Positions 1 through 9,658 of a DNA stretch of 64,000 nucleotides are shown here, in pieces. Source of the stretch: Flavobacteriales bacterium (GTDB taxonomy: Bacteria; Bacteroidota; Bacteroidia; Flavobacteriales_F; PHOS-HE28); NCBI GenBank assembly GCA_016721005.1, contig JADKJM010000016.1, positions 276,053 to 340,052 on the forward strand, written 5' to 3'. A program made the position numbers and the translations under genes. Positions within the stretch are counted from its first letter, which is position 1, and each line of letters begins with the position of its first letter. The notes under the pieces are model-generated. The model did no database searches. It was not told the origin of the DNA and saw only the letters and a list, made by a program, of their open reading frames with translations.

Positions 1-279
1 CATGCACATCCGCGTGGCACGCAATGCAATCCGAGGCGGGCTTCACATCGAAGCGGATCGATGTGTGGCATGACCTGCAGTCGATGCGCGCATGCACCCC
101 GATCAACGGCATAGCGGTGCTGTCATGGCTGAAGCCCAGCGGGTCCTTCATCGCCGTCCAACTATCCGGAAGGTGACAAGCGGAGCAATCGATCTTGAAC
201 GCTTCACCGTGCGGTGATTGAGCGCTCATCTTCAGCACCAGTAAAACGACCCCGAGGAACACGCTCCACCGGGGCATCC
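1..279 (-). CDS. multiheme cytochrome c family protein, N-terminal part (gene continues beyond window start)
   Basis: Reverse strand reads MPRWSVFLGVVLLVLKMSAQSPHGEAFKIDCSACH...CRSCH...CIACH. This is a hydrophobic signal/TM segment followed by three CxxCH heme motifs. The frame stays open to position 1. Confidence 0.5.
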
Positions 280-629
280 TTCGGTAACAGGCCGGTTCGC
301 TTCGATGGTTCTCCATCACTCGTTAATGGGTGCCGTTCGGGTGGCAGTTATAGCACGCGTTGCTGGTCGACCCTGCTGCTGACCATGGAATGCAGGCCAT
401 GGTCCAAGGTAAGTATCCGAGGGCGCCGTGTCGAGCATGGGATTGGACGAAACGGGTTCGGATCGACGCAGCGGATGGTCCGGCATGTTGAACCATGGCC
501 GTCGGCGGGTACGCGGATGCAACCCTGGAATGGCACTGGCGGCTCAGCGGCTCCGTCAAGAGCAGGTGGGTGGTGAAGATCCCGGGGATCGTGCGGACGA
601 TCGCACGCTCGCAAGGATCAGGAGCACGA

Positions 630-2216
630 CTATTTGTGACAGTCCGCGCATGCGAAACGTTCGATCTTGAAGGAAGCGACCTTCCCATCACCAGCCACCT
701 TGTGGCACTCTTTGCAATCCACTTTCGCGTGCTCGCCCACCAACGGGAACTTCGTGAGGTCATGGTCAAAGAGCTTCGGGAACCAATCGTCGGCCACGTG
801 GCAGCGCGTGCAATCGGTCACGCCGTTCACCACGAGATCATCGCCATGCACGTTGTCGTGGCAATCCGTGCAGTTGGTGCCGATGTTCCGGAAGGTCCAC
901 TTCTTCGTGTCCTTCATGTGGCAGGCGAAACACGGCGTGGCCTGGTGCGCGCCTAGTAGCGGGAAGGGGGTCTTCTTGTGCTCCTCGATCGCGAACATGC
1001 TCACATCGAAACCGTCGGTGAGGAAGTGGCATTCCACGCAATCCGGTGATACGCCGTTCTTCGCGAACTGTCCTTCGTGATAGTCCTCGTGACAGCGAGC
1101 GCAGGCGTCGAAGACGAGCGGATCGGTGTACGCATCCTTGTGGCACTTCTTGCAATCCACACCCACGTGCTTGCCCTGCAAGGGGAAGTCCGTGAGCGCG
1201 TGATCGAAGCCGTCCATGTCCTTCAATTTCTTGAACCCGGTCTCCTGGTGGCACTGCGCGCAATCGGTTCCGAACTTCCCTTCATGCTGATCCGTGTGGC
1301 AGGTCACGCATTGGTCCATCCGCACGCCCACACGATCCTGAAAAACGGTCGCCGGGTCGTTCGATCGCTTGTGGCAGGTGAAGCAGTCCACGCCCTTGTG
1401 CTTCCCGTTCAACTTGAAGGGCGTGATGTTGTGGTCGAAGCGATGCAGACCGGACAACTGGCTGAAGGCCTCGTCCACGTGGCATTGCGTGCAGGCGTTC
1501 GTGAAATGCGCCTTGTGCGGATCAGTGTGACAGGTCTTGCAGTCGGCATGCGGCACGTCGGCGAATTGCTGGAAGGCGGCGCCCTTCCGCGTGGTCTGCT
1601 TGTGGCACTTGATGCAATCCACGTTCACGTGCCCGCCGCGCAGTTTGAATTCCGCGCGGTCATGGTCGAAACGGCTGGCGGGTTTCCAATCCGTCATCGT
1701 GTGGCAATCCATGCACTCCTTCGCTAGCGTGCCTTGGTGCTGGTCCTTGTGGCACGACAAGCACGCGCGGTCCATTCCCATGAAGGTCTTCTCCCGGTAC
1801 TTCGCACGCTTGTCGGTGATGTGCTCCGGCGCATGGCACTTGCGGCAATCCACGGTCTTGTGCGCACCTTCCAACGGATAGCCCGTTAGCGCATGATCGA
1901 ATCCTTTCTCCTCGAAGCGCACCATCTCGAATTTCCTACCGTGGTGCTCGCTGTGGCAGGTGAAACAATCCTTGCCCTTCACCTCACGGCTCACATGGTA
2001 TCCACGCTTCTGCGTGATCAGGCTTTGCAATTCCTTGTGGCACGCGAGGCACTTCGCGTTCGTCACCTTGTTGCCCAGATCGTGGCATTGCGTGCAATTG
2101 CTCAAGCCTTCCAAATTCGCATGTGCCGTGGTCAGGTCGCCCGGAGAGAGCTGCGCAAGACCCCTCACTGCCGATGTCATCAGCAACACGATGAGGTATG
2201 TGCGCAAGCTTTTCAC
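630..2216 (-). CDS. 20-heme c-type cytochrome (doubled-CXXCH / cytochrome c7-like modules), secreted
   Basis: 528-aa ORF with signal peptide MKSLRTYLIVLLMTSAVRGLAQ and 20 CxxCH motifs. They are arranged as repeated FDHxxTxFPLxGxHxxVDCxxCH modules. The 5' end overlaps the upstream gene by 4 bp. Confidence 0.8.
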   Translation of the reverse strand: MKSLRTYLIVLLMTSAVRGLAQLSPGDLTTAHANLEGLSNCTQCHDLGNKVTNAKCLACHKELQSLITQKRGYHVSREVKGKDCFTCHSEHHGRKFEMVRFEEKGFDHALTGYPLEGAHKTVDCRKCHAPEHITDKRAKYREKTFMGMDRACLSCHKDQHQGTLAKECMDCHTMTDWKPASRFDHDRAEFKLRGGHVNVDCIKCHKQTTRKGAAFQQFADVPHADCKTCHTDPHKAHFTNACTQCHVDEAFSQLSGLHRFDHNITPFKLNGKHKGVDCFTCHKRSNDPATVFQDRVGVRMDQCVTCHTDQHEGKFGTDCAQCHQETGFKKLKDMDGFDHALTDFPLQGKHVGVDCKKCHKDAYTDPLVFDACARCHEDYHEGQFAKNGVSPDCVECHFLTDGFDVSMFAIEEHKKTPFPLLGAHQATPCFACHMKDTKKWTFRNIGTNCTDCHDNVHGDDLVVNGVTDCTRCHVADDWFPKLFDHDLTKFPLVGEHAKVDCKECHKVAGDGKVASFKIERFACADCHK

Positions 2217-3556
2217 TTGTGCTTCTTGACGATGTGCCCGAAGCGCTTGGTGATCTCGATGCCCACCTTGGCCAGGAATCCATTCGGGAGCTCGCCACCT
2301 GCGCAGATGTACACCAGGTCGTTCGGCATCTGCCGTGTTTCATCTCCGACCTTGACCAACACGGAATCCTCCGCAATGGACACCACTCCCGACTTGAAAA
2401 GCAGCTTGAGCTTGCCGGACTCATTGGCCGCTGTGGCCAGTTCCTTGTTCTTCGGCTTGCACCGCGGGAACACCTCATCCCGAATGCAGATGGAGACCTC
2501 GTTCTGATCCATCAGCATCATACCGTACTCAAGGCCGGAATCGCCACCGCCCACCACGATCACCTTCTTGCCGGTGATGTTCTCAGGCTCGAGCAGGCGG
2601 TAGGCCACCTTGGGCAGGTCCTCGCCAGGTACGTGCAGCTTGCGTGGGCTGCCCCGCCGCCCGATGGCCAGCAGCACGTTGTGACTGACGAACTCCTCGT
2701 TGGTATTCGTGGATACCTTGAACGTGCCATCCTTCTGCGGAATGATCGCTTCCACTTTCGTGCGCTCGTTGATCTTGATGCCATGCTCCTTGATCACCGT
2801 ATTCCAGAGCGTGAGGAGTTCACCCTTGGATGTGTCGTACAACTTGGCCTTGCCATGAAGCGGGAGGTCCATGGGCGAGGTCATCACGATCTTGGAGCGC
2901 GGGAACGTGAACACGGTGCCTCCGAGCGAGTCCTGTTCCAACGTGACGCTTGTCAGGTTGTGCTTCTTTGCTTCCAGCGTGGCGGAGATCCCCGCGGGGC
3001 CAGCACCCACGATCACAACGTCCAGAACGCCCTCGCGCTTCTCCCTGCGCGTGCCCATGATGTTGTCCATCGCTTGCTGGCCTTGCTCCACGCTGTTCTT
3101 GATCAAGCCCATGCCACCCAATTCACCGGCGATGTAGATGCCCTTGATGTTCGTCTCGAAATTCTGGTTGACATGTGGGAGCTCAACGCCTCGGGTCTCC
3201 GTGCCGATCCGCAACGAGATCGCTTCTACAGGACAGGCATGAAAGCAGGCGCCGTGGCCCACGCAATTGGTGGCATGGATCACGGTAGCCTTGCCATCGA
3301 TGATGCCCAGGATGTCCTTCTCCGGGCACTCCGCCACGCACGCCGCACTGCCGATGCACGTGTTCAGGTCGATGAACGGATGGAGCGAAACGGGTTCGAA
3401 GGTGCCCTCGGCCTTCGCCACCTCCACCTTCTTCACGACGATCGCCGACTTCTTGCTCAGGCTGCGCATGTAGAAGAAGATCACCAGCCCGCAGAGAAGG
3501 ATCACGGATCCGTAAATCGCGATCTGTTCGATGAGCACTTCCATCAGAAGATCCAC
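2213..3556 (-). CDS. membrane-anchored 4Fe-4S ferredoxin-domain + FAD/NAD(P)-binding (thioredoxin-reductase-like) oxidoreductase
   Basis: 447 aa with an N-terminal TM helix. It has two C-x2-C-x2-C-x3-CP motifs (CIGSAACVAECP, CVGHGACFHACP), then dinucleotide-binding motifs VVIVGAGPAGISA and VIVVGGGDSGLEYG. It overlaps the upstream membrane-protein gene by 13 bp. Confidence 0.8.
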   Translation of the reverse strand: MDLLMEVLIEQIAIYGSVILLCGLVIFFYMRSLSKKSAIVVKKVEVAKAEGTFEPVSLHPFIDLNTCIGSAACVAECPEKDILGIIDGKATVIHATNCVGHGACFHACPVEAISLRIGTETRGVELPHVNQNFETNIKGIYIAGELGGMGLIKNSVEQGQQAMDNIMGTRREKREGVLDVVIVGAGPAGISATLEAKKHNLTSVTLEQDSLGGTVFTFPRSKIVMTSPMDLPLHGKAKLYDTSKGELLTLWNTVIKEHGIKINERTKVEAIIPQKDGTFKVSTNTNEEFVSHNVLLAIGRRGSPRKLHVPGEDLPKVAYRLLEPENITGKKVIVVGGGDSGLEYGMMLMDQNEVSICIRDEVFPRCKPKNKELATAANESGKLKLLFKSGVVSIAEDSVLVKVGDETRQMPNDLVYICAGGELPNGFLAKVGIEITKRFGHIVKKHK

Positions 3557-4404
3557 TTGTATCCGAAGGCCAGCGTAACGGCCACGTGGATGATGAGCAC
3601 GATGAGCATGATCAGCGCGAATGGCAGGTGTGCCACATGCCAGTACTTGAACAATTTCTGCATGGTCAGCAAGCGCCCGATGCGGCGCGACAGTGCGAAT
3701 TCCTCCTTCACCATCCTGATGATCGACACCTGCTCGTTTCGCGCAACGTTCCGTTGCTTCAGTGAACTTCGAATGGCGTTGATCGCTTTCCGCTCACGCA
3801 ATTGCTTCGCGAAGAAATTCGGACCCATCACGGTAATCCCATCGGGTTCATCCACGCCGGTGATGAACGCGATCAACTTCTCATCCAGACCAGCGCTGTG
3901 CTTCAAGGTCTCCACCAGGCCGGAGCGCAAACCCTTCACCTCGTTCAACGTGAGCTCGCGGCCTTCGATGCTCCTCGGGATCTGGATATAGATGAAGCGA
4001 CCGATGATACCGCTGGCCACCACCGCCACCATGCTCCAGAACGCCACCGAGACCAAGCCACCGAACTTGAACGCCGTGTGGAAGAGGATCAGGATCGGGC
4101 CGAGCATGCACAGGAAGATGTGGAACTCGAGCAGGTACTTCAGCCGGAGCTGCTTCGCCATGAAATTGTACCGCTTGCGTGCGATGTAGATCGCCACACC
4201 GAAGAGGATGAGAAAGGTGCCCAGGATGCCCAGCCCGTGCCCGAAGGCGCCGCTCGGTTTGAACCATGCGTGGCGCGGATGGTAGAAGCGCTCTTCCAGC
4301 GGAAGGTCGTAATAAGACCACCCCGTATAGGCCAGGTATGCGGTCACCACGACAGTGATCACGACCATGGAGCCGACAAAAACGGCGTGCGTGGTCCGGG
4401 TCAT
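3544..4404 (-). CDS. polytopic membrane protein with His-rich TM helices (candidate b-heme binding), function unknown
   Basis: Five predicted TM helices with His residues inside them (FHIFLCMLGPILILFHTAF; WHVAHLPFALIMLIVLIIHVAV). The start is chosen at MTRTTHAVFVG; the upstream extension to 4536 looks non-protein-like. It is first in a co-directional overlapping four-gene cluster. Confidence 0.5.
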   Translation of the reverse strand: MTRTTHAVFVGSMVVITVVVTAYLAYTGWSYYDLPLEERFYHPRHAWFKPSGAFGHGLGILGTFLILFGVAIYIARKRYNFMAKQLRLKYLLEFHIFLCMLGPILILFHTAFKFGGLVSVAFWSMVAVVASGIIGRFIYIQIPRSIEGRELTLNEVKGLRSGLVETLKHSAGLDEKLIAFITGVDEPDGITVMGPNFFAKQLRERKAINAIRSSLKQRNVARNEQVSIIRMVKEEFALSRRIGRLLTMQKLFKYWHVAHLPFALIMLIVLIIHVAVTLAFGYKWIF

Positions 4405-4806
4405 CGCTTCCTTGGTTCGCAGGTGGCGTTCTCCACGGATCCGGATCGTAAGGTGTGCATGGCTTTGCCCTCTAAGGTCGGGCACTGCGCGCGATGGATC
4501 CATGACATTTAGCCGAGGCGGGGCGGATCCGGCCATGAGACGGACGATGCCTACCGACGAGACCCACGTCCTTCAAGGGTTTCCGGGCCGTTGCAGCTTG
4601 AGGGAACACGGCTTGGAATTGTGAACAGCACCCGGTTCAGATCGACGGATCCGGGTCGAACGTGATCTGATCCAGACGGTCAGCGGGTGCGGAATGACTG
4701 AATGGTACTTCGTGGAACAGCGCTTGAAGATCGATCACAACCTAGAAGGATCTCCCCCGGACCCTTGCCGCCGATGGTCCCGCCGGCGACCCGCCGGTGG
4801 CCCTCC

Positions 4807-5427
4807 TCAAACCAGGACATGTTCCTCGACATACGCCCCTTGCGCTTCATGCGCACGAATGTACCTCTCGAATTTCACCAGCGAGGCTTCGCTGCGAACG
4901 ATGTGATCGAAGCTCTCCGCCTTCCATAGTGTTCCTGTTCTACCGAGAACCTTGTTGATCGACTTGGCTGTGTACGATTTCCATGTATGCGTGATCGTGG
5001 AAAGGTCCACGCCCACTAGCGGTACAACGAGTACATGCACATGGTTCCCTGCCACGGCAAATGTTCCCAAACGATACCGTGGTCCGTCGAAATAGTGAAG
5101 TGCCACGATCATTTCCTCCCTTGGAATCGGCTGTCGTAGCACGCATGAACCGGCACCCGCATCCAACCAGCGCTCCACGCGTTCATGGAAGAGACGGTAG
5201 TACTCACGGCGCTGCGAAGGATCGAGCGTACGAACATCCTTGTCCCCATGCCGCGCCCGCCATGCCTTGCGGTCGCGCTCAAGTTCCCGGAGCTTCACCT
5301 GCGGCAGGCTATCGGCTAAACGCCACGTTACGAAATGGACCTTGCCTTCTTGTTTCCAGTGCGGACGATTCCGGCGAGTAATCTCCAGTTCTTCATGCTC
5401 ATTGAAGAAGAGGTTCTCCGTGTCCAT
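4807..5427 (-). CDS. IS200-like Y1 transposase / REP-associated tyrosine transposase (RAYT)
   Basis: Carries the HVHVLV (HuH) motif and the catalytic Tyr context TWKSYTAKSINK. There are the REP-like hairpin and tandem repeats immediately 5' of it. The start is taken at MDTENLFF; the ORF track extension into the repeat array is unlikely to be coding. Confidence 0.7.
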   Translation of the reverse strand: MDTENLFFNEHEELEITRRNRPHWKQEGKVHFVTWRLADSLPQVKLRELERDRKAWRARHGDKDVRTLDPSQRREYYRLFHERVERWLDAGAGSCVLRQPIPREEMIVALHYFDGPRYRLGTFAVAGNHVHVLVVPLVGVDLSTITHTWKSYTAKSINKVLGRTGTLWKAESFDHIVRSEASLVKFERYIRAHEAQGAYVEEHVLV

Positions 5428-5483
5428 TGGAATACGAACGTACAAGGCATTCGCCACAGCACAAGCGAGGTGGGCGATAAGAT

Positions 5484-5616
5484 CAACAGGCGGGACGCAG
5501 CAACAACCCATCAACAGGCGGGACGCAGCAACAACCCATCAACAGGCGGGACGCAGCAACAACCCATCAACAGGCGGGACGCAGCAACAACCCATCAACA
5601 GGCGGGACGCCTGTTG
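5484..5616. repeat. 4 x 28-bp tandem repeat (caacaggcgggacgcagcaacaacccat) ending in a perfect palindrome caacaggcg-gga-cgcctgttg (REP-like hairpin)
   Basis: Read directly from the sequence. Four identical 28-bp units span 5484-5595. A fifth, truncated unit converts into a 9-bp-stem hairpin at 5596-5616. The element sits between the RAYT start and the sucB stop. Confidence 0.85.
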
Positions 5617-5620
5617 GACC

Positions 5621-6850
5621 TTAAAGCCCCAACAACACCTCTCCCGGATCCTTCCCGCCGAAGACCATCGTCTTGGGATCCTCGATCATCTGCTTCACGG
5701 CCATGAGGAAGCTCACGCTCTCCTTGCCGTCGATGACGCGGTGGTCGTAGCTCAGCGCCACGAACATGATCGGTCGGATGACGACCTGTCCGTTCAAGGC
5801 AACAGGGCGCTCCACGATGTTGTGCATACCCAGGATCGCGCTCTGCGGCGGGTTGAGGATCGGCGTGCTGAGCATGCTCCCGAACACACCGCCGTTGGTG
5901 ATGGTGAATGTGCCGCCGGTCATCTCGTCGATGCTGAGTTTGCCATCACGTGCTTTCACGGCCAGTTCCTTGATCGTGCTTTCGATCTGTGCGAGGCTCA
6001 TGCGCTCCGCGTTGCGGATCACCGGGACCATGAGGCCCTTGGGTGAACTCACCGCGATGCCGATATCGGCGTAGTCGTGCATGATCATCTCCTCTCCATC
6101 GATGTGCGCGTTCACGGTGGGGAACTGCCGCAGCGCTTCGGTAACGGCCTTGGTGAAGAAGCTCATGAAGCCGAGACCGATGCCCTTCTGCTCCTTGAAC
6201 TTGTCCTTGTACTTGTTGCGCAGGTCCATCACCGCGCTCATGTCCACCTCGTTGAAGGTGGTGAGCATGGCGGTCTGGTTCTTCGCCATCACGAGCCGCT
6301 CGGCGACCTTCTTCCGCAGCGTGCTCATCTTCTGCCGACTCTGGTCGCGCTTGCCGCCCCAGCCGCTCATCACCACGGCACCGGCATCCACGCCACCAGC
6401 GACGTATGCCGCCACATCGCTCTTGGTGATGCGACCGTTCGGGCCGCTGCCCTTGAGGGTATTCGCGGCGATCCCTTTCTCCTCCATCATCTTCTGCGCC
6501 ACCGGTGTTGCGTGGGATGAACCAGAGGCAGGAGCAGGCGCCGGAGCAACACTTGCGGTTGCCTTCTTTGCCTCCTGCACCTGCTCCTGCCCCTTCTTGA
6601 CCACGGGCGCAACGCTCGTATCGATCCTCACCACCACATCGCCGACGTTCACGGTCTGGTCCTCCTTCGCCAGCAACTTCACTTGGCCTGCTACTTCGGC
6701 GCTGAGCTCCAGTGTGGCCTTGTCGCTATCGATCTCGCCGAGCACCTGGTCCTTGTTCACCACGTCGCCATCCTTCACAAGCCAACGCGCAATACGCACT
6801 TCGCTGATGCTCTCGCCGGGACTGGGGACTTTGATGTCGATCGTGGCCAT
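5621..6850 (-). CDS. sucB: 2-oxoglutarate dehydrogenase E2 (dihydrolipoyllysine-residue succinyltransferase)
   Basis: N-terminal lipoyl domain ([29 protein letters not shown], with the lipoyl-lysine context), an Ala/Pro linker, and a C-terminal catalytic domain with SYDHRVIDG. Confidence 0.9.
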
Positions 6851-6880
6851 GCTCTGGTGTCGGTTGACGGTTGTTCGTTA

Positions 6881-9658
6881 TCAGGCTTTCGCTTTCACCT
6901 TGGTGGTGGACTTCGCGAAGGCTTTCTCGATGATGTCCGATTGCTGTTTCGCGCTCCGTTTGCTACTGCCGGTGGCGGGCGCGCCGCTGGCGGGCCGTGC
7001 GATCACTTCCCACTTCACCTCATTGAAGTGCATCGCCATGTAGCTCCACGCGCCCATGTTCAGTGGCTCTTCCTGTACCCAGAGGAAGCGCTCCGCCTTC
7101 GCGTACTTCTTGATCACCGCGCGCATCTGTTCAGCCGGTAGCGGATGCAGTTGTTCGAGACGAACCAAGGCGGTGTCCGTGATGTTGCTCTTCTCGCGAT
7201 GATCGAGCAGATCGTAGTGGATCTTGCCTTGGGTGAAGATCACGGTCCTCACCTTCTTCGCATCGGCTGAGGCATCATCAATCAATTCCTGGAAGCCACC
7301 CTTCGTGAGATCGTCCAACGGGCTCACACAACGCGGGTGCCGCAGCAGGCTCTTCGGCGTGAAGACGATCAGCGGCTTGCGGAATTCCCACGCGAGTTGG
7401 CGACGCAAGGCGTGGAAGAAGTTCGCGGGCGTGGTGCAATTCACCACCACCATGTTAGCCTCGGCGCAACTTTGCAGGAAGCGTTCCATGCGACCGCTGC
7501 TGTGTTCGGCGCCTTGACCTTCGTAGCCGTGCGGTAGCAGCAGCACGATGCCGTTCTGCGTATTCCACTTCTCCTCGGCGCAGCAGAGGTATTGATCCAG
7601 GACGATCTGTGCACCGTTGACGAAATCGCCGAACTGCGCTTCCCAGATGGTGAGCACTTCCGGGTTCGTGAGCGCGTAGCCGTACTCGAACCCGAGCACC
7701 GCGTATTCGCTCAGGAGCGAATTGTAGATCTGCAATAAGGCTTGCCCTTCCTGGATGTGCTTGAGGTGGATGAACTCCTCCTCGCTGTCCTCCATGCGCA
7801 CCACAGCGTGGCGGTGACTGAAGGTGCCGCGCTCCACATCCTGTCCGGTGAAGCGCACAGGGTGCCCGTCCACGAGCAACGAACCGTACGCAAGCAATTC
7901 GGCCATGCCCCAATCGAGGCTCTCCTTGGCCATCATCTCCTTGCGGTCGTTCAGGATCTTCTCCAGTTTGCTGAAGAACTTCTTGCCCTCGGGGATCGCC
8001 GTCAACTTCTCGCCGATCATCTTCAGTGTCGCCTTCTTCACCCCTGTGACCGGCGACTGCGCGAAATCCTTCGCCCCTGCGCGCTTGAAGCCTTGCCAGC
8101 GCTCAGCCATGAAGTTGGTGATCTTCCCCACGCGCACCTGCTTGGCCTCGTTCAAGCGATCGTCGAGCATCGCGCTGAAGGAGGTTTCCATCTCCTCCGC
8201 CATTTCGCGCGCGCCTTCCACACCGCTATCGATCAATTTCTGCGTGTAGATCTCCCGTGGATCGGCATGCGCCGCGATCGCCTTGTACAATGTGGGTTGC
8301 GTGAACTTCGGTTCGTCGCCCTCGTTGTGGCCGTGCTTGCGGTAGCAGAGGATGTCCACCCACACGTCCTTGCCGGACATCTGGCGGTAGTCCATCGCCA
8401 ACTTCACCGTGTAGGCCACGGCCTCGGCATCATCGCCGTTCACATGGAATACCGGGCATTGCGTGGTCTTGGCGACGTCGGTGCAATAGGTGCTCGTGCG
8501 TGCGTCGATGTAATTGGTGGTGAAGCCGACCTGATTGTTCACCACGATGTGGATCGTGCCGCCGATCTCGTAGGCTTTCAAGCCTGCCATCTGCACCACT
8601 TCATACACCACACCTTGCCCGGCCACGGCCGCGTCACCATGGATGAGGATCGGTGCGGTGATGCCCAGCGCGAAATTGTCGTCATGCTCGATGATCGCAC
8701 GGCTGATCCCTTGCATCACCGGCCCCACGGTCTCCAAGTGACTCGGATTCGGTGCGAGGGTCAATCGCACTTCCTTGCCCGTGTTGGTGGTGATCAGGCT
8801 GCTGTAGCCCATGTGGTATTTCACATCACCTTCCACCAGGGCGTCGTCGTAGTCCTTGCCCTCGAACTCGCTGAAGATGGTGTCGTAGCTCTTGCGCATG
8901 GTGTTGGCCAACACATTCAAACGACCGCGATGCGCCATGCCGATCACATACTCGGAGATGCCCAGCTCCGCACCGTGCTCGATCACCGTGTCCAATGCAG
9001 GGATCAGCGCTTCGGCACCTTCGATGCTGAAGCGCTTCTGGCCGATGAACTTCTTGCCGAGGAAACGCTCGAAGACCACTGCCTCGTTCAGCTTCTCCAG
9101 GATGTCCTTCTTCTGCTCGATGGTGAAGTCCGGTTGGTTGCGCGTGCCTTCCATGCGATCGAGCAGCCAACGGCGTCTCTCCAAACTGCGGATGAACATG
9201 AACTCCACGCCGATGCTCTTGCAATAGGTCTGCTCAAGCAGGGCCACGATGTCGCGCAGTTTCGCAGCACCGATGCCCACCTCGTTCCCTGCTGTGAACA
9301 CGGTGTCGAGGTCCGCATCACCGAGTTTGTGGTTCTCCAGGGCGAGCGTGGGCGTGTACTTGCGCCGATCGCGTACAGGGTTCGTATCGGTGAAGAGGTG
9401 GCCGCGCTGGCGGTACGCATTGATCAGTTCGATGACCCGGAATTCCTTCTCGAAGCGTTCGTTCCCTGCCGAAGGTGGTGCAGTGGGCGCTGATCCCAAG
9501 GTCGCTTCACCATCGCCATCCAACGACTTGGCGAATTCGAATCCTTCGAAGAAGCGCGCCCAGCCCGTTTCCACACTGGCGGGGTCCTTCTGGTATTGCT
9601 GGTACAGGTCGTCGAGCCAAGCGCTATCGACGTTGCTCAGGTAGGAGAACTTGTCCAT
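6881..9658 (-). CDS. sucA: 2-oxoglutarate dehydrogenase E1 component
   Basis: 925 aa beginning MDKFSYLSNVDSAWLDDLYQQYQKDP, typical of the SucA N-terminus. Contains a TPP-binding region. It lies upstream of sucB, consistent with a sucAB operon. Confidence 0.9.
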   Translation of the reverse strand: MDKFSYLSNVDSAWLDDLYQQYQKDPASVETGWARFFEGFEFAKSLDGDGEATLGSAPTAPPSAGNERFEKEFRVIELINAYRQRGHLFTDTNPVRDRRKYTPTLALENHKLGDADLDTVFTAGNEVGIGAAKLRDIVALLEQTYCKSIGVEFMFIRSLERRRWLLDRMEGTRNQPDFTIEQKKDILEKLNEAVVFERFLGKKFIGQKRFSIEGAEALIPALDTVIEHGAELGISEYVIGMAHRGRLNVLANTMRKSYDTIFSEFEGKDYDDALVEGDVKYHMGYSSLITTNTGKEVRLTLAPNPSHLETVGPVMQGISRAIIEHDDNFALGITAPILIHGDAAVAGQGVVYEVVQMAGLKAYEIGGTIHIVVNNQVGFTTNYIDARTSTYCTDVAKTTQCPVFHVNGDDAEAVAYTVKLAMDYRQMSGKDVWVDILCYRKHGHNEGDEPKFTQPTLYKAIAAHADPREIYTQKLIDSGVEGAREMAEEMETSFSAMLDDRLNEAKQVRVGKITNFMAERWQGFKRAGAKDFAQSPVTGVKKATLKMIGEKLTAIPEGKKFFSKLEKILNDRKEMMAKESLDWGMAELLAYGSLLVDGHPVRFTGQDVERGTFSHRHAVVRMEDSEEEFIHLKHIQEGQALLQIYNSLLSEYAVLGFEYGYALTNPEVLTIWEAQFGDFVNGAQIVLDQYLCCAEEKWNTQNGIVLLLPHGYEGQGAEHSSGRMERFLQSCAEANMVVVNCTTPANFFHALRRQLAWEFRKPLIVFTPKSLLRHPRCVSPLDDLTKGGFQELIDDASADAKKVRTVIFTQGKIHYDLLDHREKSNITDTALVRLEQLHPLPAEQMRAVIKKYAKAERFLWVQEEPLNMGAWSYMAMHFNEVKWEVIARPASGAPATGSSKRSAKQQSDIIEKAFAKSTTKVKAKA

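Follow-up and report, generated by a model that had tools for sequence, protein, structure and literature searches.

Candidate inner-membrane entry module for a heme-wire electron conduit in a Flavobacteriales bacterium and other Bacteroidota

We analyzed a stretch of DNA from a Flavobacteriales bacterium (contig JADKJM010000016.1; "the window" means this whole stretch of 64,000 nucleotides), and we focus on a gene cluster at its beginning that may carry electrons across the inner membrane to multiheme cytochromes. On the minus strand of positions 1..4536, there are three translationally coupled genes, which encode a membrane protein, an oxidoreductase with iron-sulfur (Fe-S) and flavin adenine dinucleotide (FAD) motifs, and a cytochrome c with 20 hemes. 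An earlier reading of the sequence alone (the original prediction) had described four overlapping, coupled genes. Three of these are indeed coupled, with an overlap of 4 bp (GTGA) between the oxidoreductase and cytochrome genes, but the fourth is separate: there is a gap of 313 bp between the third (20-heme) gene and the fourth, without overlap, and this gap contains the relic of another multiheme gene. The features of the cluster are:

3544..4404, minus strand: five-helix inner-membrane protein, 286 amino acids plus stop, a candidate di-heme b cytochrome
2213..3556, minus strand: membrane-anchored Fe-S flavoprotein, 447 amino acids from a GTG at 3556 or 443 amino acids from an ATG at 3544
630..2216, minus strand: secreted 20-heme cytochrome c, 528 amino acids, with six c7-like triheme modules and a terminal diheme
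326..651, minus strand: decayed relic of a second, length-variable multiheme cytochrome gene, found by tblastn against the cytochromes of relatives
1..316, minus strand: 5' part of a further multiheme cytochrome gene, 105 codons with 3 CxxCH motifs, which leaves the window at position 1
4405..4806, minus strand: non-coding region upstream of the membrane gene, presumed to bear the promoter

Two of the start codons need comment. The open reading frame (ORF) for the membrane protein was called as 3544..4536 on the minus strand (330 amino acids), but the true start is almost certainly the ATG at 4404, because thousands of homologues are 284-286 amino acids long and begin at the equivalent of MTRTTH. 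For the oxidoreductase, the GTG at 3556 gives a 13-bp overlap with the membrane gene, as was originally described, while the ATG at 3544, which is the gene callers' choice in orthologues, gives TGATG and an overlap of only 1 bp. Either start implies that the two genes are coupled. There are no terminator-like sites between the cluster genes on the minus strand. A scan for sigma-70-like sites found none in 4405..4806, although Bacteroidota promoters are outside the scope of that scan. Nucleotide similarity to relatives (73-76%) spans 4404 to about 619, and we found no further CxxCH-rich ORFs elsewhere in the 64-kb window.

The membrane protein is the least familiar part of the cluster, as it has no Pfam or NCBIfam match above threshold. 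Its AlphaFold2 model (pLDDT 92.7) has five long helices, at residues 3-32, 53-78, 88-109, 116-140, and 222-279, and beside them a helical domain at residues 141-250, which is cytoplasmic. Counts of Lys and Arg show that loops 2 and 4 are rich in these residues and are therefore cytoplasmic. Helix 3 carries H95 (codon at 4122..4120) and H109 (4080..4078), helix 4 carries the motif S131-G-x-x-G135, and helix 5 carries W255, H259 (3630..3628), and H273 (3588..3586), which form W-x3-H-x13-H. The family has the same W-x3-H-x13-H motif on helix 3; at least 90% of the family have Trp at position 91, where the window protein and those nearest to it have Leu. We compared 85 full-length members, which are about 30% identical: H109, H259, and H273 never vary, and H95, W255, H256, S131, G132, and G135 are each kept in at least 90%. 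Given the placement of Lys and Arg in the loops, one His pair (H95 and H259) is close to the cytoplasmic side of the membrane and the other (H109 and H273) to the periplasmic side. Di-heme b cytochromes that span the membrane classically have this geometry, and the protein is a candidate for binding heme b. So the five transmembrane segments with His inside the helices, as originally proposed, hold up, and the loss of these His from homologues, which had been named as a sign against the idea, was not seen.

Scans of single family members against Pfam gave weak matches to DUF4405 (58 of 85 members), Ferric_reduct (33 of 85), and Ni_hydr_CYTB (21 of 85), with a best E of 5.7e-6. These are families that are named for, or have been shown to bind, membrane heme b; for a DUF4405 protein, the binding of heme b was shown experimentally (PMC11334425). 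The family is also large: the candidates that we scored include over 6,700 clusters at 90% identity, and there are 2,506 clusters at 50% identity (E up to 0.001). Wherever the source names these homologues, they are "hypothetical protein."

The oxidoreductase has an N-terminal transmembrane helix at about residues 9-30 (3532..3467). Acidic residues precede the helix and many Lys and Arg follow it, so the cofactor domains should be cytoplasmic. We also note that 73 of 77 orthologues share Cys22 (3493..3491), which lies within this membrane anchor. After the helix comes a ferredoxin-like domain (residues 60-115), which contains six Cys along with Ser70 and His101. The first Fe-S motif is C67-x5-C73-x3-C77-P, with Ser70 in place of the usual second Cys, and the second is C98-x2-H101-x2-C104-x3-C108-P, with His101 in that place. 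All 77 orthologues that we examined have both substitutions and the six Cys. (His106 and His128 likewise vary hardly or not at all.) The original claim of two 4Fe-4S motifs therefore stands in part: the Fer4-type matches are above their cut-offs (Fer4_10, 41.2 versus 25.5 bits; Fer4_2, 35.8 versus 24.5 bits), but each motif has only three Cys, and the protein lacks the two complete CxxCxxCxxxCP motifs with eight Cys. Because the second Cys of each motif is replaced in every orthologue, the clusters are probably atypical, that is, [3Fe-4S] and/or [4Fe-4S] with His or Ser as a ligand.

The rest of the oxidoreductase is a flavoprotein (Pfam Pyr_redox_3, 122 bits) with an FAD motif at G184-x-G-x-x-G189 and an apparent motif for reduced nicotinamide adenine dinucleotide (phosphate), or NAD(P)H, at G336-x-G-x-x-G341 (2551..2534). 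With its hydrophobic N-terminal helix, this agrees with the original description of a membrane anchor joined to a FAD/NAD(P) fold resembling thioredoxin reductase (TrxR). The closest solved relatives of the flavoprotein part are YpdA/Bdr (7A7B, E 1.7e-24) and the TrxR-type ferredoxin-NADP+ reductases (also 6GAR, 3AB1, and 3LZW), with which it shares a fold of two Rossmann domains. Unlike these relatives, it has an added transmembrane helix and ferredoxin domain, it has Ala at the position of Cys14 of Bdr (GAGPAG aligned to GGGPCG), and its FAD-binding strand appears to have moved forward. This strand, which is C-terminal in the relatives (TNIKGIYIAGELGG), aligns to residues 127-147 (3175..3115), ahead of the first Rossmann motif, which suggests that the fold is circularly permuted. 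We considered whether the protein could be a bacillithiol or thioredoxin (disulfide) reductase and rejected this. The Cys of Bdr is absent, as is a redox-active CxxC (C357 and C366 are not conserved in orthologues), so it is not a disulfide reductase; its scores are also low for YpdA (145.5 versus 339.9 bits) and for TrxR (66.6 versus 343 bits).

The third gene encodes a cytochrome with a cleavable signal peptide and exactly 20 CxxCH motifs. All of its 40 Cys lie within these motifs, and its 45 His would suffice for bis-His ligation at all 20 hemes. It has no CxxCK, CX3CH, or CX4CH motifs. The hemes are laid out as six triheme units of about 75 amino acids and a terminal diheme, with five exact FDH modules and one degenerate one, and Pfam Cytochrome_C7 matches over four stretches (87.3 versus 24.8 bits). 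This is the 528-amino-acid, c7-like cytochrome with a signal peptide and five FDH repeats that was originally described. No protein in the PDB matches its sequence at E 0.001. The polymeric c7-type cytochromes of Geobacter (of the GSU1996, GSU0592, and GSU2210 type) are likewise chains of triheme c7-like modules, and as in those proteins, the number of hemes changes in steps of three. The modules here differ in being longer, with an FDHxxxxFxLxGxH lead-in, and the gene of the cytochrome here is part of a conserved cluster that also encodes partners in the inner and outer membranes.

If these genes work together, then they should stay together in other genomes, and they do. We scanned one genome per species (185,579 species genomes), using a narrower alignment of the membrane protein as the query, and at least 589 places encode a relative of it. 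We analyzed 83 loci, namely the best 80 of these 589 or more places and three further loci. The membrane gene and the oxidoreductase gene are adjacent in 78 of the 83, usually with the same stop/start overlap, and the exceptions are mostly at the ends of contigs. Wherever the contig is long enough, the next gene encodes a cytochrome, which has 23 hemes in 45 loci and 20 in 15 loci. It is followed by a second cytochrome, with 13-73 hemes. This order (membrane protein, oxidoreductase, 20- or 23-heme cytochrome, 13- to 73-heme cytochrome) is found in Flavobacteriaceae, Saprospiraceae, Cyclobacteriaceae, and Chitinophagales and on a plasmid of Emticicia. The carriers include cultured bacteria (Aequorivita, Arenibacter, Lutibacter, Algibacter, Ulvibacter, Yeosuana, and Luteirhabdus) and metagenome-assembled genomes (MAGs) from Saprospiraceae, Cyclobacteriaceae, Chryseolinea, and Chitinophagales. 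Even family members at only 30-32% identity retain the same neighbors, including the adjacent oxidoreductase. The co-occurrence of the genes in other genomes had been suggested as a check on the original prediction, and the prediction comes through it well. Furthermore, one lineage has a natural fusion of 743 amino acids, with the flavoprotein followed by the membrane protein and with multiheme cytochromes flanking it. The order within the fusion fits a topology with the N terminus inside, and the fusion directly supports a joint function for the two proteins.

The second cytochrome varies greatly among relatives. Its heme counts are 13, 16, 19, 22, 25, and so on up to 73, and because 44 of 46 counts are of the form 3n+1, it appears that these genes expand and contract by whole triheme modules. 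(In locus L005, some of the repeats are identical at the protein level.) In the window, only a relic of the second cytochrome is left, which we identified by tblastn against the second and third cytochromes of loci L002, L004, L005, and L006. Like the second cytochrome gene of relatives, the relic begins 22 bp inside the preceding gene. It starts with a run of signal-peptide codons at 651..583 (MRGLSQIVVLLILASVRSSARSP), followed by broken frames, and it keeps the conserved C-terminal SNACYNCHPNG (364..332, the last 11 codons); the middle of the gene has been deleted, and the heme motifs have disappeared. We considered whether the assembly had collapsed the repeats of an intact gene, but this is less likely than decay, because the CxxCH motifs and the reading frame are gone from what remains. 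The gene that was correctly said to continue off the window is the partial one at 316..1. It has a weak match to Pfam Cytochrome_C7, and it is 62% identical to the N terminus of the 472-amino-acid cytochrome of L002, versus 47% to the second cytochrome. By this comparison we assign it as the orthologue of the relatives' third cytochrome (472 amino acids and 19 hemes in L002).

What lies further downstream can be seen in relatives. Among the 45 loci that have at least 9 kb downstream, 39 encode a protein of about 530 amino acids, 35 encode a lipoprotein of about 260 amino acids, and 22 encode a ResB-CcsA fusion. The 530-amino-acid family has no Pfam match. In its AlphaFold2 model (pLDDT 82), a signal peptide and a small beta domain are combined with a barrel that has about 22-24 strands. 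Ushers (FimD/PapC) and porins match this model at E 1e-10, so we predict that the protein is an outer-membrane barrel. Since relatives carry this barrel downstream, the electron chain probably does not end in the periplasm.

Two plasmids are informative about the partners of the membrane protein. First, plasmid pEMTOL02 of Emticicia oligotrophica, a cultured strain, has a complete set of seven genes on one strand (L093, NC_018749.1 78197..90781). In RefSeq, these are, in order, ccsA, a hypothetical protein, an NAD(P)-binding domain-containing protein, two cytochrome c3 family proteins, another hypothetical protein, and a GW domain protein. The ccsA gene encodes a ResB-CcsA fusion and the two cytochrome c3 family proteins have 23 and 40 hemes. 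That the cluster is on a plasmid suggests that it is horizontally mobile. Second, plasmid pAM1A3 of Alteromonas macleodii (L094, NZ_CP012203.1) encodes a homologue of 252 amino acids with the same His and SGxxG motifs. This homologue is flanked by a 7-heme cytochrome and by an unrelated membrane-anchored flavoprotein (FAD_binding_6, NAD_binding_1, and 2Fe-2S); the module also includes a 407-amino-acid membrane protein, and it lies directly upstream of the structural and maturation genes of a NiFe hydrogenase. Thus, the membrane protein is associated with two unrelated flavo-Fe-S partners of the NAD(P)H type, and it would seem to tie the redox state of cytoplasmic pyridine nucleotides to periplasmic heme wires. 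In our view, the comparison of pAM1A3 with the Bacteroidota cluster is the strongest indirect argument for this role.

The other side of the cluster also differs between the window and its relatives. Upstream of the membrane gene, the window has:

4807..5514, minus strand: ORF resembling a REP-associated tyrosine transposase, from sub-threshold NCBIfam and Pfam matches
5482..5610: 28-bp tandem repeat, 4.6 copies at 100% identity, with the unit ATCAACAGGCGGGACGCAGCAACAACCC
5621..9658, minus strand: sucB and sucA, which encode 2-oxoglutarate dehydrogenase E2 and E1, upstream of the cluster

The closest Flavobacteriales MAGs (L001-L003) have kept sucB and sucA as neighbors too. Upstream of the cluster, relatives have a membrane-protein paralogue of 175 amino acids, a 12-heme cytochrome, and a VIT1 gene. 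The paralogue (L002, 7480..9022) has the same two HX13H helices without the cytoplasmic domain, and it adjoins the 12-heme cytochrome. At this place the window has the transposase-like gene and the perfect 28-bp array instead, and the short paralogue is absent, so this organism has a trimmed version of the cluster. The array sits between the stop codon of sucB and the transposase-like gene, and its unit is absent elsewhere in the window. As for the transposase-like ORF, it scores 36 versus 80 bits for the REP-associated tyrosine transposase of NCBIfam and 22.1 versus 23 bits for the IS200-like Y1_Tnp of Pfam. Its true start is probably further downstream, because the listed TTG lies inside the tandem repeat.

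We propose that the products of the three coupled genes form the entry module, at the inner membrane, of an electron conduit through the cell envelope, which leads from NAD(P)H to heme wires. We believe this somewhat more than we doubt it, with a probability of roughly 55%. Our starting points are the gene order, the coupling, the natural fusion, the conservation of motifs, and the predicted folds, and the original idea of a chain across the inner membrane to a periplasmic heme wire gains support from the conservation, the co-occurrence, and the fusion. In this proposal, the flavoprotein would be held at the cytoplasmic face by its N-terminal helix, would oxidize NAD(P)H at its FAD, and would forward single electrons via the two atypical Fe-S clusters. 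The membrane protein would carry two stacked b hemes between helices 3 and 5, one ligated by His95 and His259 on the cytoplasmic side and the other by His109 and His273 on the periplasmic side, and these hemes would deliver the electrons to the periplasm. The 20-heme cytochrome would accept them there and relay them to further multiheme cytochromes. In relatives, the 22- to 24-strand barrel and the lipoprotein would complete the path to the exterior, and presumably they do so beyond the edge of the window here as well. The logic would be that of an NADPH oxidase or ferric reductase that has been split into subunits and has a heme wire as its acceptor. Such a system probably bypasses the quinone pool, and it would be an electron vent or a metal reductase instead of a step that conserves energy. 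The heme b content, the NAD(P)H donor, the outward direction, and the terminal acceptor are all features that we infer.

The closest parallel that we found is with the PCC3 and PCC4 porin-cytochrome clusters, which He et al. defined in 2017 in iron oxidizers and other Proteobacteria and which comprise a porin, cytochromes with very many hemes, and an inner-membrane protein (PMC5566968). That inner-membrane protein has about 300 amino acids, five helices, SGXXG on helix 4, and WX3HX13H on helices 3 and 5, and He et al. suggested that it binds two b hemes and is active with quinones; the periplasmic cytochromes of PCC3 have 21, 24, or 27 hemes (PMC5566968). As of 2023-2025, the function of PCC3 was still unverified (PMC9900912, PMC12442390). 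Compared by this published signature, the window's membrane protein has the length, the five helices, the SGxxG, and the HX13H features, with Leu91 as the exception. The window and PCC3 also both have, next to the membrane gene, a periplasmic cytochrome whose hemes number about 20-27 and change in steps of three (20 in the window), and relatives of the window also share with PCC3 a repetitive and very large second cytochrome with a highly variable number of hemes and a gene for a large beta-barrel. So while no NCBIfam model of a named complex reaches its cut-off and the original statement that this is no standard named complex is correct to that extent, the membrane protein does have a published signature (PMC5566968). 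On the other hand, PCC3 as described has four genes, is from Proteobacteria, and lacks a flavoprotein, and a quinone-active role was proposed for its membrane protein. The Bacteroidota cluster has a coupled or fused Fe-S/FAD/NAD(P)H protein with a transmembrane anchor, it usually has a GW-domain lipoprotein and a dedicated CcsBA, and its hosts are organotrophs. A porin-cytochrome system of Verrucomicrobia (PMC5615132) is a different cluster. In the open-access literature on multiheme, porin-cytochrome, or PCC3 systems of Flavobacteriales, Flavobacteriaceae, or Bacteroidota, we found no description of this cluster or of the partnership with a flavoprotein. It looks like a flavoprotein-fed and apparently undescribed version of the PCC3-type clusters.

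Other known systems are similar in their logic. The NADPH oxidases and ferric reductases (NOX/FRE), the DUF4405 proteins, MsrQ, and the PepSY-TM protein FoxB resemble the proposed chain in the path from NAD(P)H via flavin and two stacked b hemes to an external acceptor, and in four His on two helices at the same spacing. Compared to NOX/FRE, the dehydrogenase here is a separate, TrxR-like protein (Pyr_redox_3) with two Fe-S clusters, not FNR-like (FAD_binding_8/NAD_binding_6), and the membrane protein has five helices and a 110-residue cytoplasmic domain versus the six-helix ferric-reductase domain. The acceptor here would be a multiheme cytochrome, not O2, Fe(III), or MsrP. The window protein has no match to Ferric_reduct, so it does not belong to NOX/FRE, and the resemblance is functional only. 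The Hmc and Tmc complexes of Desulfovibrio combine a multiheme cytochrome in the periplasm, a cytochrome b in the membrane, and an Fe-S protein in the cytoplasm, with no obligatory quinone step. They share with the cluster an overall architecture that links a periplasmic heme pool to cytoplasmic redox carriers. They differ in that an NAD(P)H flavoprotein takes the place of an HdrD-like CCG protein as the cytoplasmic subunit here, that there are no NrfD-like or periplasmic Fe-S subunits, that HmcA is matched at just 16.2 versus 400 bits, and that the direction of electron flow is likely the opposite.

Could the cluster instead be a known catalytic multiheme system (a nitrite, sulfite, hydroxylamine, or tetrathionate reductase) or a quinol-linked one such as Hmc, Tmc, ACIII, CymA, ImcH, or CbcL? 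There are sub-threshold NCBIfam matches to a DmsE-family decaheme protein (37 bits) and to HmcA, but the cut-offs (192 bits for DmsE) are far from reached, there is no CxxCK or other catalytic-heme motif, and neither the cluster here nor those of relatives include a molybdopterin, siroheme, NrfD-like, or NapC/NirT protein. We therefore reject nitrite, sulfite, and hydroxylamine reductases, ACIII, Hmc/Tmc, and Mtr as candidates, given the lack of catalytic-heme motifs, of family matches at threshold level, and of matching subunits, and we consider this whole class of explanations to be highly improbable. A match to a well-characterized complex had been named in advance as evidence against the original prediction; there was none to NrfA, HAO, or sulfite reductase, and no NCBIfam model of a named complex reached its cut-off. 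Another idea is that the wiring is as we propose and its purpose is different: the cluster might be an assimilatory ferric reductase or an extracellular one-electron reductase, for reductive iron uptake or for making superoxide. The NOX/FRE-like logic, the weak Ferric_reduct matches among family members, the annotation of one plasmid homologue as an "iron reductase," and the VIT1 iron-transporter gene that neighbors the cluster in three loci all point this way. Yet tens of hemes per protein (up to 73), along with a dedicated CcsBA, would be a large cost for taking up a trace metal, and there are no conserved siderophore or Fe(II)-uptake genes nearby in related loci, so we think that this purpose is quite unlikely.

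The direction and the extent of the chain can also be questioned. Electrons might be taken up, with the cytochromes oxidizing a donor outside the cell or in the periplasm (such as Fe(II), Mn(II), reduced humics, or H2) and the electrons moving inward to quinone or NAD(P)+ via the flavoprotein. The cluster shares the signature of PCC3/PCC4, whose clusters are enriched in iron and manganese oxidizers, and the Alteromonas analogue adjoins a set of NiFe hydrogenase genes, so that inward flow from H2 is feasible. Nevertheless, for Fe(II) or humics to reduce NAD(P)+ (at about -320 mV) is a steep uphill step, and the inward movement would be against the membrane potential; because of this, an NAD(P)H-type flavoprotein favors outward flow. 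There is no quinone-site family among the Pfam and NCBIfam matches either, and among the hosts, Aequorivita, Arenibacter, Lutibacter, Algibacter, and Emticicia are organotrophs. Uptake thus seems unlikely to us. It is also doubtful that the role is purely periplasmic, with the cytochromes acting as an electron store or reducing soluble periplasmic substrates or toxic metals, and with the barrel being unrelated or accessory. All of the cytochromes that we saw have ordinary signal peptides, and we noticed no lipobox or type IX secretion tail; the long, variable cytochrome has been lost in the window; and the surface location of the cluster's cytochromes is still putative. But it would be hard to explain why the barrel (39 of 45) and the lipoprotein (35 of 45) are on the same strand and at a fixed position, across families and on a plasmid, and the arrangement parallels that of known porin-cytochrome clusters (PMC5566968).

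There are also several points that count against our proposal of an entry module running outward from NAD(P)H. All of the support for the function of the cluster comes from the sequences and models of family members. The best Pfam match of the window's membrane protein is a poor one (DUF4405, E 0.12, 13.4 versus 26.7 bits); a Foldseek search of its AlphaFold2 model against the PDB found nothing related (the best E was 0.3, to F-BAR helices); and a family-profile search of PDB sequences found only designed coiled coils, which match over the cytoplasmic domain. Each Fe-S site of the oxidoreductase is one Cys short, so that any type or potential given to the clusters is tentative, and its use of NAD(P)H is read from the second Rossmann motif only. 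The barrel, the lipoprotein, and CcsBA were seen in relatives and not in this window, and an extracellular site for any of the cytochromes remains putative. Because the second cytochrome is a relic, this organism's version of the cluster may be reduced or inactive. Finally, PCC3 was proposed to be for iron oxidation, which is the opposite direction, and to be coupled to quinones (PMC5566968).

If our proposal is correct, it bears on the least understood step of most routes of extracellular electron transfer, which is how electrons cross the inner membrane. The role of the PCC3/PCC4 membrane protein has been a guess since 2017, and the Bacteroidota cluster supplies a concrete partner for it, a flavo-Fe-S protein. 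That this NAD(P)H-type partner is coupled or fused to it points to a NOX-like mechanism that bypasses quinones. More speculatively, the five-helix proteins with (W)x3Hx13H might be a general, quinone-independent gate for electrons across the membrane, which pairs with interchangeable flavo-Fe-S proteins (TrxR-like in Bacteroidota and FNR-like in Alteromonas), and Bacteroidota might own a full wire from NAD(P)H to the cell surface. This broader idea is tentative and we would not be surprised if it is wrong. If it is true, then hundreds of supposedly strictly aerobic species of Bacteroidota, including marine Flavobacteriaceae and the Flavobacteriales of activated sludge, would own the full wire and could dump electrons on minerals, humics, or O2 (as extracellular superoxide) when oxygen is scarce, and the assumed coupling of PCC3/PCC4 to quinones in iron oxidizers would be overturned.

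To find such a cluster in cultured aerobes and on a plasmid is unexpected for a phylum that is rarely considered to be electroactive. The Emticicia plasmid, which is in a cultured strain, offers an experimental handle. If the cluster is functional, it would serve as a compact module that connects NAD(P)H in the cytoplasm to electrodes, and we would have to revise our view of redox balancing, of metal reduction, and perhaps of the extracellular production of reactive oxygen in marine and wastewater Flavobacteriia.

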